DNA of 56,452 nt from NCBI GenBank assembly GCA_000004985.1, contig GG738938.1; one strand, given 5' to 3'. Both the position numbers and the translations under genes were made by a program. Of this stretch, positions 40,621 to 42,812 are shown piece by piece. The number at the start of each line of letters is the position of its first letter. Positions within the stretch are counted from its first letter, which is position 1. This DNA is from Naegleria gruberi. Taxonomy: Eukaryota. Below the pieces are notes generated by a model. That model ran no database searches. It was not told the DNA's origin and saw only the letters and a program-made list of their open reading frames with translations.

Positions 40621-41437
40621 TTAAAGACACAATAATTTCATTCCTGGATGAACCATAGTTACATTTATACCATTTCCATTGTCAACTTTAATTACTGGAA
40701 TAACATTAAATGTTTCTTTAAATTTGGAAATATTATTTGTTTCCACATTTAAGTAATAAAGTTGACCATTTTGTTTGTTTTTGAAATAGGCATACTCTTT
40801 AGTTTCAACAATAAAAAACAAATCATTTGGGGATTTAGTATATTTAAAACCATTTAGTTTTTGAATATTAGTATCAACATGATTTAAATAATTATTATAT
40901 GTACTTGTTAAGTCAATAAATTCTAATGCTGTTTGGTTTGAATTATGATTTTTATAGAAAGCAATAATATTCTTATTTAAACTTTCAAAACCAAATAAAG
41001 TATTTGCAAATAATGGACCATGTGTTCTAAAAGTATAACCAAAATGTAAAAGTAAATGTGTTTTTGTGATACAATATTTCTCACCATAAAAACGTTTAAA
41101 CCATATAAAAAAGGCAATCAAATTATTTTCACATATAGTAACTCCTTGATTATTTAAAGGAAAATGTAATAAATAAATACTTTTGAGAAATATAGAAATA
41201 TATTTATATTCCTCATTTGAAATAACATTTTCTAATAAACTAGAAAAATAAAAGAAAAATATTAACCATTCTTTTGCTTTTAAATAAGCAAAATGCTTCT
41301 CAAATGATCTAGGTTTAAATTTAACCCAAGAAGGAAGTTTTTGTTGTAACCATTTTTCATCTATTTTTTTAAGAAATTGTTTATCTTTAGTTGACCATAT
41401 TTTAAATAATTGAATAAAATATCCTAAACATAAAGTA
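40621..41437 (-). CDS. C-terminal part of the TnpD-like transposase (DUF4218-like region), continuous open frame from the 50-N gap to a TAA stop at 40621
   Basis: Hand translation of the minus strand from the gap edge gives an uninterrupted frame. It reads TLCLGYFIQLFKIWSTKDKQFLKKIDEKWLQQKLPSWVKFKPRSFEKHFAYLKAKEWLIFFFYFSSLLENVISNEEYKYISIFLKSIYLLHFPLNNQGVTICENNLIAFFIWFKRFYGEKYCITKTHLLLHFGYTFRTHGPLFANTLFGFESLNK.... The HL..H(x6-7)GP(x5)F.FE motif matches the DUF4218 core of plant and fungal TnpD proteins (HLPIHL....GPV...WMYPFER). The ORF track shows only the 40621..41121 part because it requires a start codon. Confidence 0.55.
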
Positions 41438-41487
41438 NNNNNNNNNNNNNNNNNNNNNNNNNNNNNNNNNNNNNNNNNNNNNNNNNN
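41438..41487. other. 50-N scaffold gap inside the transposase gene
   Basis: The N run sits between two same-strand open frames that both belong to TnpD-like sequence. Confidence 0.99.
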
Positions 41488-42812
41488 ATGGAAGAATTAT
41501 TTAATTGTAAATGAGGAATAATAGTTGAATAATAATTAGTATCTCTTAAGTTTTTTGATATTTTTGTTGAAGTGTAAATTATTTTAGCTTTTTTCTTATT
41601 ATTTTTAATATATCCAAATGGTTTCCCATAAATTTTACAAATATGGCAACAATAATATCCACCATGACCTTTTATACAAAATATTTTAGATCTAGCAGGT
41701 AAATCAAATATTCCTCTAATAACATAAAATTTAGATAGTTGATTATTAATTTGAATTCCATTATGAATATTTTGTATTTCAGTTACAACAGAATCCCATA
41801 ATTCAAAAGAATCAATTAATTCATTAGGAACTAAATGAGTTAGTAAAATATTTTGAATTTGGAATCTTTGGGTACTTTTTAATTCATTAAAAGAATACAT
41901 TATTGGCCATATTGAAAATTGGGAGGTTTTAAAAATTTTTACACCATCTGAATTTAATGTTAATGTAAAGTGTTTTCCAGTTTTGGTTAAATAATTAAAT
42001 TGTTTATAATGATTTCCTTTATATATATCATCAATTAATAATTCATTAGTATTATTTGATTGGATTAAATTAGAATAATATTTTAGTTTTTCAGTAAAAT
42101 TCTTAGATTTAAATTTTGATTTAATTAAATCTTCTAATTTTCTTTCAAAAAAGTATTTCTTTTTATCTAATTGTTTTTTACATTTACATTCACTATAACA
42201 ATTATTTGTTACAAATTTACATGTTGTACAATAATACATTTTATAAAAAGGAATATCAATATCAATATTTTCAAAAAAACTTTTGAAATTGTTTGCATGT
42301 TCTAAATTATATTCTTTAATAATATTATAAATAGTATTAATTAATGATGTAGTCATGTTTTTAGAAAGTTTTGACGTAACAATTAAATTTAATGTATCCA
42401 TTATTTTGCTATCTAAAGATTCTTTTGGTAAAGAAGGAAGTTGTTTGTTAATATAATTATTAATTACAATAGAATCAGTTAGATTATTTAAATCATTTTC
42501 AGAAAATTCATTTTCTTCATCACTATTATCTGAATCTGAATTTGATAATTCAGATTCAGATATACTAATTTCACTTTCACAATCACTTTCAATTGAATAA
42601 TAATTATCATCATCACAATATTCATCCTCACTATGTTGATGACAATTACAATTAGTATGATAATTATTACATCCATAATTTTCATTATGTCCTAAATTAT
42701 CCAATCCACCAATTTCTAAATTATTAATTTGTTGTGAAGGATTATAATGTTCATAAAGTGCCTCAAATATTGGATCCGCAATATCAATTTCATTATGTTT
42801 TCTTTTAGACAT
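41488..42812 (-). CDS. N-terminal part of a CACTA/En-Spm TnpD-like transposase (Transposase_21 / tnp2 family); ATG at 42812
   Basis: The translation contains FTLTLNSDGVKIFKTSQFSIWPIMYSFNELKSTQRFQIQNILLTHLVP. This matches the DG(F)NPF..S..S.WPV....YNLPP..R......L..LIPGP core of Transposase_21. It is followed by IRGIFDLPARSKIFCIKGHGGYYCCHICKIYG, matching the INDFPAYG.LSGWST.G..ACP.C block. The N-terminus is Cys-rich (YCTTCKFVTNNCYSECKCKK), like the transposase-associated zinc-finger region, and there is an acidic Ser/Asp/Glu stretch. The 475-codon ORF lies in roughly 22% GC DNA, where stop codons are frequent, so it is clearly coding. Confidence 0.65.

Follow-up and report, generated by a model that had tools for sequence, protein, structure and literature searches.

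The window analysed here, a 56,452-nt stretch of a heavily gapped scaffold in which 36 of 56 kb are N, carries on its minus strand two open reading frames separated by a scaffold gap of 50 N (41438..41487). The N-terminal half of a transposase occupies 41488..42812 (-), running from an ATG at 42812 (MSKRK...) through 441 codons and 2 nt to the gap edge. The C-terminal half occupies 40621..41437 (-) and is made up of one spare nucleotide (41437), 271 sense codons from 41436 to 40624 and a terminator at 40621-40623, the frame closing with TAA TAA. In the list of open reading frames the two halves appear as 41424..42851 (-) (475 aa) and 40621..41121 (-) (166 aa), the longer entry also taking in 13 residues before the real ATG, 17 X and 3 read-through residues. 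The coordinates and frames of the two ORFs in the original prediction were borne out with small corrections. The frame from the gap edge at 41437 is indeed open to the stop, although the 272 codons counted there are 271 sense codons plus the stop, and the whole protein is predicted at about 734-747 aa instead of the roughly 760 aa that had been proposed.

The DNA carrying the transposase frames and the adjoining ORF2 is about 20% GC, and roughly a tenth of random codons in such DNA would be stops; the 712 visible transposase codons contain none. The longest open run in shuffled sequence was 123 codons as against 441 observed for the N-terminal half, and 112 codons as against 271 for the C-terminal half, with 17-96 stops in the other two minus-strand frames. 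No introns are seen in the visible genes. The N-terminus is rich in acidic residues and serine and is followed by a CxxC...CxC cluster at residues 195-211, which probably serves in DNA binding, and the C-terminal half ends in a weakly conserved tail.

An exhaustive phmmer search with the N-terminal core (residues 185-441) as query retrieved 2640 proteins at E<=1e-3, with a best E of 2e-27; 249 of these reached E<=1e-10. The C-terminal half was tested by phmmer against 150 homologues found with this core, and 72 of the 150 matched both halves (domain E<1e-6), the C-terminal match lying downstream in every case. In a word-indexed protein search the joined protein had a single match, P0001, and the C-terminal half had none; a host ORF searched in the same way had none either, and exact look-ups of four proteins of the window gave no record. 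Relatives of the transposase were scattered over animals and marine samples; none was found among viral contigs. The co-linearity in 72 homologues and the similarly extreme GC3 of the two halves (0.07 and 0.11) supported the view of the original prediction that the two ORFs belong to one transposase gene. The halves might still derive from two copies of one transposon family that were scaffolded across a collapsed repeat, gaps being frequent inside repeated elements and N abundant in this scaffold. However, they are co-linear on the same strand, the hole between them is of the size that the homologues predict, their extreme GC3 is shared and their codon phases are compatible, and the window contains neither a further copy nor a fragment, so that we regard a chimera of this kind as very unlikely.

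The true size of the gap is not given by its N count. Three gaps in the window are of exactly 50 N, and the figure therefore looks like a placeholder. Since the codon phases on the two sides are 2 nt and 1 nt, an in-frame junction requires a true gap length divisible by three, and the 50 N as written leave the halves out of frame. Projection from the homologues gave a median of 31 missing residues (20-38 in 58 of the 72), and the gap is predicted to conceal about 22-35 codons, some 4% of the protein. These codons should encode the family motifs GxKG and (I/V)DxMH, the latter being D(2)H. The corresponding columns G453, D474 and H477 are invariant in an alignment of 30 homologues, the C-terminal half aligns from its residue 1 onwards, immediately past the 'IDIMH' of P0013, and a related locus (L002, JGI 3300038658) has GFKG and YDVMH where the window gene has the gap. 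The L002 transposase gene carries two short introns (GTAAGT..AG) in this region, and an intron, a frameshift or a stop inside the gap of the window gene is possible. The statement that the ORF is split only by the gap was upheld in that the visible frames are open and the phases compatible. However, because the gap covers two family-invariant motifs, GxKG and D-x-x-H, the term 'intact' cannot be proven for a gene in which the residues bearing them are concealed.

The visible parts were compared with the alignment of the same 30 homologues. The first catalytic aspartate, D289 (NSDG, 41946-41948 (-)), and the second, D370 (FDLPA, 41703-41705 (-)), both fall on invariant columns, as do C389 and C392 of the C389-H-I-C392 pair (41637-41648 (-)) and R423. 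In the C-terminal half, H127 and H131 (HLLLH, 41044-41058 (-)) correspond to the invariant columns H614 and H618. E151 (FGFES, 40984-40986 (-)), which completes the catalytic triad, corresponds to the invariant E638. The motif HLLLHF...THGPLFANTLFGFESL that had been noticed in this half was located at its residues 127-152, and the conservation of the catalytic acidic residues, for which an alignment had been proposed as a check, was found at all three positions. The signature of the CMC group consists of DDE, C(2)C and H(3-4)H (PMC12730594), and the visible parts retain it as a D,D,E triad, C(2)C and H(3)H. Several near-invariant family positions are changed in the window gene (P0117 numbering): V replaces W338, K replaces G642 and E replaces Q657, and the 'KP' pair at 343/344 is altered as well. 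Inspection by eye of the P0001 sequence and of a pairwise alignment indicates that P0001 likewise has no W at the 338 position.

These substitutions bear on the reading of the locus as a dead relic, in which a frameshift or stop would lie in the gap, or the GxKG/D(2)H segment would be deleted there, and no functional transposase would be made. The hidden segment is unreadable, the 50 N as written are out of frame, and no clear terminal repeats, target-site duplication or second copy were found, all of which would fit such a relic. Against it, the 712 transposase codons and the 672 codons of ORF2 are free of stops, every visible catalytic and zinc-binding residue is retained, and the flanking phases permit an in-frame join. 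We thus consider a relic unlikely, and the visible parts of the transposase look functional.

Direct Pfam matches of the window protein were below the family cut-offs. DUF1258 (PF06869) matched residues 238-400 with 30.1 bits (E 4.5e-7; gathering threshold 33.1) and Transposase_21 (PF02992) residues 272-401 with 21.5 bits (E 1.5e-4; gathering threshold 28.6), and the C-terminal half had no direct match to DUF4218 (PF13960) at E<=1. Among the 30 homologues (E<=1e-3), Transposase_21 was matched by 29, DUF1258 by 28 and DUF4218 by 4, and the Transposase_21 threshold was exceeded by 10 of the 11 homologues with scores listed. The DUF4218 matches in P0071 (690-779, 25.9 bits) and P0111 (579-643, 19.0 bits), neither of which reaches the 27-bit threshold, lie over the part aligned with residues ~99-170 of the C-terminal half. 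The labels TnpD-like, Transposase_21 and DUF4218 given in the original prediction could accordingly be recovered through the homologues, but direct scores fall short of the cut-offs and for DUF4218 there is none. DUF1258 has been equated with Mirage and is a close homologue of Transposase_21 (Majorek et al. 2014, PMC3985635). A PDB sequence search with the homologue profile gave nothing meaningful, and no RAG1 or Transib chain. Taken on sequence similarity, the transposase is best placed in the Transposase_21/DUF1258 branch of the CMC group (CACTA/En-Spm, Mirage, Chapaev), and the protein is no further from DUF1258, the Mirage model, than from TnpD of plants.

Divergent from the transposase lies ORF2, a 672-aa frame at 42830..44848 (+), the two ATGs (42812 (-) and 42830 (+)) being separated by a spacer of 17 nt (42813..42829). 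Its 672 open codons compare with a shuffle maximum of 144, and its GC3 of 0.10 is like that of the transposase, not that of host genes. No Pfam match and no meaningful PDB sequence match were found for ORF2, and a single-sequence AlphaFold prediction was unusable (mean pLDDT 33.8). By tblastn, ORF2 matched a second related locus, L003 (JACCDN010140821.1), with 27% identity over 485 aa (E 5e-44); the match and the L003 transposase lie on opposite strands. At L003 the transposase N-terminus is 41% identical and the two genes again form a head-to-head pair, with a spacer of ~76 nt. The L003 contig is 35% GC and not AT-rich. The transposase N-terminal part is 32-36% identical at L002 and at a third locus, L001 (Logan SRR6651926), and a divergent upstream ORF is present at both. 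L002 carries both transposase halves, matching the C-terminal half of the window gene with 30% identity over 233 aa (tblastn, E 3e-23); its GTAAGT..AG introns have no counterpart in the visible window gene. Homology links the L001 and L002 partner ORFs (E 1.5e-17), and no similarity of ORF2 to either was found by BLASTP or with a small HMM. ORF2 is a conserved partner gene of the transposase lineage, its pairing with the transposase being seen in a second genome too.

Both genes lie within an AT-rich island, ~40350-46420, whose sharp edges are set between host genes. GC3 of the transposase halves and ORF2 is 0.07-0.11, as against 0.26-0.35 in eight host ORFs. RIP-like decay was considered as a source of the AT-richness and rejected because neither ORF contains stop codons. 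At the left edge of the island, 33 nt beyond the end of the adjacent host ORF (stop codon at 40345), stands the motif TCCCTGCAA (40378..40386 (+)), followed by AAAAAATAAA; at the right edge, 47 nt ahead of the ATG of a host ORF (46429), the same motif stands inverted (46374..46382 (-)). The exact 9-mer occurs twice in the window, as this inverted pair, where 0.11 occurrences were expected, and none of 100 shuffles reached two. At L003, TCCCTGC-AAAAAATAAA recurs at 68-85, past the 3' end of the L003 ORF2, and L003 has the TCCCTGCAAAAAATAAA motif near its end. The pair and its recurrence are no more than suggestive of element ends or of subterminal motifs.

Termini of CMC elements are described as 5'-CA..TG-3' with terminal inverted repeats and target-site duplications of 2-5 bp (PMC12730594). 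A repeat search of the window for terminal inverted repeats gave only AT-rich noise, an exhaustive ungapped scan for such repeats with target-site duplications found none, and a gapped alignment of the whole flanks was no better than shuffles (83/300). The candidate TCCCTGCAA ends of the single copy examined show neither CA..TG nor a target-site duplication. Self-BLAST and tblastn found no second copy in the 20 kb of the window that are not N. Near the right edge, at 46135..46343 (+), a repeat search (families D1 and D2) and Tandem Repeats Finder detected a cluster of 24-25-nt units around the palindrome GATTTAATTAAATC(CA). This pattern has 12 matches against 1.8 expected, mostly within 46135-46343, with a weak match at 40462-40477, and the cluster may represent subterminal repeats. 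Inside the island, just downstream of ORF2, a GC-rich stretch of 331 nt (44920..45250, 47% GC) had no Rfam match at the gathering threshold or at E<=1, was negative with ARAGORN, folded no better than shuffles on either strand, contained no ORF longer than 52 aa and had no copy elsewhere in the window.

The failure to find canonical terminal inverted repeats or a target-site duplication, the single copy seen and the evident constraint on both ORFs would also suit a transposase-derived gene that the host had domesticated together with ORF2 and that was no longer mobile. Against this, GC3 is not that of the host, the genes occupy a sharp-edged AT-rich island with the inverted 9-mer at both edges, the same gene pair is found in the L003 contig of other composition, and the relatives are scattered over animals and marine samples as those of a mobile family would be. 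Domestication is in our judgement highly improbable. The stretch 40621-42812 (-) is probably a single DDE cut-and-paste transposase gene of the CMC group, interrupted by the gap and set in a two-gene element of ~6 kb.

We propose that the element, roughly 40378-46382, would consist of the transposase and the divergent ORF2, inserted between host genes. The transposase would have an RNase H-like core, with D289 and D370 contributed by the front half and E151 by the back half. If the hidden gap segment is intact, as we infer, the enzyme would excise and reinsert the element through the usual two-metal DDE chemistry, and ORF2, like TnpA of En/Spm, might play an accessory role. A recent arrival or recent activity of the element may also be supposed. 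The view that it was recently active gained from the two intact ORFs and the foreign composition, but because no clear terminal inverted repeats, target-site duplication or second copy were found, recent activity is plausible rather than established. A further and doubtful reading, which we put forward only tentatively, would make the locus a member of an undescribed CACTA/Mirage lineage of AT-rich, intron-poor eukaryotes, marked by a 670-aa domainless partner, a spacer of 17-76 nt and ends other than CA..TG (TCCCTGCAA...), the GC3 of ~0.1 against ~0.3 in the host then reflecting a recent horizontal arrival.

For annotation, both ORFs are to be merged into one gap-interrupted transposase gene model, and ORF2 is to be assigned to that mobile element, not to the host genes. 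The locus adds a divergent element of Transposase_21/DUF1258 type, with a conserved partner gene, to a group mostly known from plants, animals and fungi. Should the concealed segment prove intact and more copies exist, the host would have in it a candidate active transposon; otherwise it amounts to routine transposon annotation. In kind, the gene is an ordinary member of the CACTA/Mirage/Chapaev group of cut-and-paste transposases.

Among known systems, the wider CMCT clade also takes in Chapaev, Plavaka and Transib/RAG1. No match to DUF1280 (Chapaev) was found in the window protein (E<=1) or in the 30 homologues (E<=1e-3), one of which has a weak Plavaka match (E 0.0011). With Mirage of nematodes the window gene shares DUF1258, the best direct Pfam match of its N-terminal half; in contrast, this host is a eukaryote with AT-rich DNA and few introns that encodes an RGS-domain protein and shows no sign of being a nematode. 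The CACTA termini and 3-bp target-site duplication of En/Spm were not found around the window gene, and ORF2, which matches no Pfam family, is set beside TnpA, the En/Spm accessory protein that binds subterminal repeats, by analogy only. En/Spm is an alternatively spliced single transcription unit, whereas the window genes stand head to head and are visibly intronless. With TnpD of En/Spm and Tnp2 of Tam1 the window gene shares the DDE core, whose first D stands in 'xxDG' and whose second stands in 'D(L/F)PA', followed by C(2)C, H(3)H and the 'FE' catalytic glutamate in a DUF4218-like region; the domain order, Transposase_21 and then the DUF4218-like part, is the same, and in both cases the transposase is accompanied by an accessory ORF in a two-gene element.

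Translation of the minus strand showed that the N-terminal half of the transposase gene (41488-42812) starts with an ATG at 42812 (MSKRKHNEIDIA...) and runs for 441 codons to the gap edge at 41488, where 2 nt of a split codon are left over. The C-terminal half (40621-41437) supplies 1 nt at 41437 and then 271 sense codons (41436-40624) followed by TAA TAA. Its frame is open right from the gap edge, as had been claimed, and its entry in the ORF list is only 166 aa because that list starts at the first TTG or ATG. While 441 and 271 codons were observed, the longest open runs after shuffling were 123 and 112 codons for the N- and C-terminal halves, respectively, and the remaining two minus-strand frames contained 17-96 stops. 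Both open runs are well above chance level, and the coordinates and frames of the original prediction were confirmed by translation and shuffle comparison. The codon phases across the gap are 2 nt + gap + 1 nt, so that a true gap length divisible by 3 would put both halves in one frame. With 50 N as written they are out of frame with each other, and this length looks like a placeholder. Runs of exactly 50 N occur at 41438-41487, 47369-47418 and 49863-49912, alongside runs of 30775, 1988 and 3084 nt, in a scaffold made up largely of gaps (35,997 of 56,452 bases, or 64%, are N; overall GC 30%). The gaps at 47369-47418 and 49863-49912 lie within or adjoin long host ORFs, and thus further gene models in the window are probably also split. 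Elsewhere, a 401-aa multi-pass membrane ORF (1189-2394) is followed after 90 nt by a 200-aa RGS-domain ORF (2484-3086), the two probably forming a single 7TM-RGS gene with a short intron. The RGS domain marks the window as eukaryotic DNA.

A word-indexed protein search returned a single match, the homologue P0001 (36% identity), and was dominated by low-complexity words. An exhaustive phmmer search using the conserved core (N-terminal-half residues 185-441) as query gave 2640 proteins at E<=1e-3, including 249 at E<=1e-10. The named homologues are uncharacterised proteins from one thrips and two bivalves, and one more homologue cluster takes in Tara ocean samples. When the C-terminal half was compared locally with the best 150 of the 2640 core matches, it was matched in 72 of them (domain E<1e-6), each time downstream of the N-terminal match. 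The hole between the projected matches had a median of 31 residues; it measured 20-38 residues in 58 of these 72 proteins and 22 in P0013, the best bridging homologue. Third-position GC (GC3) is extreme in both halves (0.07 and 0.11). The same-order homology in 72 homologues and the matching GC3 established the two ORFs as halves of one transposase gene. The predicted single protein thus stood, while its length of roughly 760 aa did not; judged from the homologues, the full-length protein would be slightly shorter, at ~734-747 aa. The halves meet only across a scaffold gap, and we also considered a chimera of two copies joined through scaffolding; with no second element copy found within the window, this is very unlikely.

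Conservation of the catalytic acidic residues was checked in two alignments of the window protein, one to 20 and the other to 30 full-length homologues. Family-invariant positions comprise, in the front part, the N-terminal CxxC...CxxC cluster, D in 'NTDG', W, R, D in 'DLPA', CxxC and R, and, in the back part, G in 'GVKG', D..H in 'IDxMH', HxxxH, E in 'PFEDLNG' and Q. All three acidic residues are kept in the window protein: D289 (NSDG, 41946-41948) and D370 (FDLPA, 41703-41705) in the N-terminal half, and E151 (FGFES, 40984-40986) in the C-terminal half, whose residues are numbered separately. The visible Cys/His motifs are conserved with this triad, as C389 and C392 (CxxC, 41637-41648) and H127 and H131 of the C-terminal half (HLLLH, 41044-41058) are retained, as is R423 (NLRD) of the N-terminal half. 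Widely conserved positions that are substituted, in the numbering of the homologue P0117, are W338 (to V), the KP pair 343/344, G642 (to K) and Q657 (to E). By eye, in the sequence and pairwise alignment, P0001 likewise lacks W at position 338, so that its loss is probably a subfamily trait. The 50-N gap is exactly where GxKG and D(2)H would lie, with residue 1 of the C-terminal half aligning directly behind 'IDIMH' of P0013. Thus, the claim that the transposase is intact and split only by the gap is favoured by the visible residues and is unproven for these two motifs; a dead relic, with its lesion hidden in the gap, is unlikely.

Both transposase halves are also present in a distantly related locus, L002 (JGI 3300038658), which encodes GFKG and YDVMH where the window has its gap. 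Its transposase gene contains a pair of introns (GTAAGT...AG, each roughly 50-70 nt; 2440-2870), one behind the CxxC motif and the other about 20 residues past the D(2)H motif, and a prokaryote-style gene caller gave products of 383, 66 and 226 aa. In contrast, both of these positions are intron-free in the window gene, although an intron may lie within the 50-N gap.

The gene lies in an AT-rich island (about 40350-46420) of 18-22% GC, whereas the bordering host ORFs have 32-37% GC; GC3 is 0.07-0.11 in the transposase and ORF2, its divergent 672-aa neighbour (42830-44848, plus strand), versus 0.26-0.35 in eight host ORFs. The base composition of the element is foreign to the host. Around the element, no ungapped terminal inverted repeat, CA..TG terminus or target-site duplication was found. 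A domesticated host gene, for which such missing ends could speak and against which the composition stands, is marginally less probable still than a chimera. The claim of recent activity draws on the foreign composition and the two intact ORFs and is unproven.

The exact 9-mer TCCCTGCAA has just two copies in the window (0.11 expected; a count of 2 was reached in 0 of 100 shuffles), mutually inverted and one per edge of the island, at 40378-40386 (+) and 46374-46382 (-). An extended motif, TCCCTGC-AAAAAATAAA, occurs at 68-85 of a related locus, L003 (JACCDN010140821.1, found by scanning metagenome contigs), past the 3' end of its ORF2, an alignment equalled by only 5 of 300 shuffles. Since the gapped alignment of whole window flanks was not significant (83 of 300 shuffles), these sites are taken as candidate element ends only. 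Repeats of 24-25 nt built on the palindrome GATTTAATTAAATC(CA) cluster at 46135-46343, just inside the right edge, with a weak copy near the left edge (40462-40477); the pattern has 12 matches versus 1.8 expected, and the repeats may be subterminal binding sites. Within the island, directly past the ORF2 stop, 331 nt (44920-45250) have 47% GC and include a one-mismatch TCCCTGCAA copy (44945-44953, minus strand); this stretch gave no Rfam match, tRNA, above-shuffle fold energy, ORF >52 aa or other copy in the window. At 40541-40575, some 50-80 nt beyond the transposase stop codon, a CACGTG palindrome precedes an imperfect hairpin, CCCACTTATAAATATTTATAATGGGGG, and GGTGTTGTGAGG at 40578-40589 exactly matches L003 190-201.

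The transposase N-terminus of L003, a closer relative, shares 41% amino-acid identity with that of the window (E 4e-34; 71.6% nucleotide identity over 204 nt), and an ORF2 homologue (27% identical across 485 aa, E 5e-44) stands head to head with it. On this sequence comparison, ORF2 is a conserved partner of the transposase. The start codons are separated by 17 nt in the window (42813-42829) and by about 76 nt in L003; with a 17-nt spacer, the promoter and 5' UTR of each gene must overlap the coding sequence of the other. The L003 homologue (444-2374, minus strand) is broken into ORFs of 515 and 122 aa in different frames by a frameshift or intron, and this copy may therefore be decayed. Divergent upstream ORFs are also found in L002 (156-1013, minus strand) and in another distant relative, L001 (Logan SRR6651926; 318-1658, minus strand). 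The two share homology (26% identity across 278 aa, E 1.5e-17), and no similarity of either to ORF2 of the window was found; the partner gene in this position seems to differ between sublineages of the family.

By analogy with DDE transposases of the CMC group (CACTA/En-Spm, Mirage, Chapaev), the cysteine-rich N-terminus would bind the element ends, perhaps aided by ORF2, a D-D-E metal site on an RNase H-like core would cut and rejoin DNA, and an element of about 6 kb would thereby be moved.

Within this group, DUF1258 corresponds to Mirage, Transposase_21 to CACTA and DUF1280 to Chapaev (Majorek et al. 2014, PMC3985635). The N-terminal half scored below the Pfam cut-offs for both DUF1258 (30.1 versus 33.1 bits) and Transposase_21 (21.5 versus 28.6 bits), no Pfam match was found for the C-terminal half, and DUF1280 was absent from the Pfam matches. 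Among 30 homologues, Transposase_21 was matched in 29, DUF1258 in 28 and DUF4218 in four; in the homologues P0071 (690-779) and P0111 (579-643), DUF4218 covers the stretch aligning with the C-terminal half, both matches being sub-threshold. The predicted TnpD-like, Transposase_21 and DUF4218 labels thus hold only through homologues and not by direct Pfam thresholds. The transposon is a further example of an already known type, modestly new in its conserved partner ORF of unassigned function, very short divergent spacer, strong composition contrast with the host and possibly non-canonical ends. Its likeness to TnpD of CACTA elements holds at superfamily level, while the Mirage model is an equally close or closer match, the curated threshold being missed in both cases.
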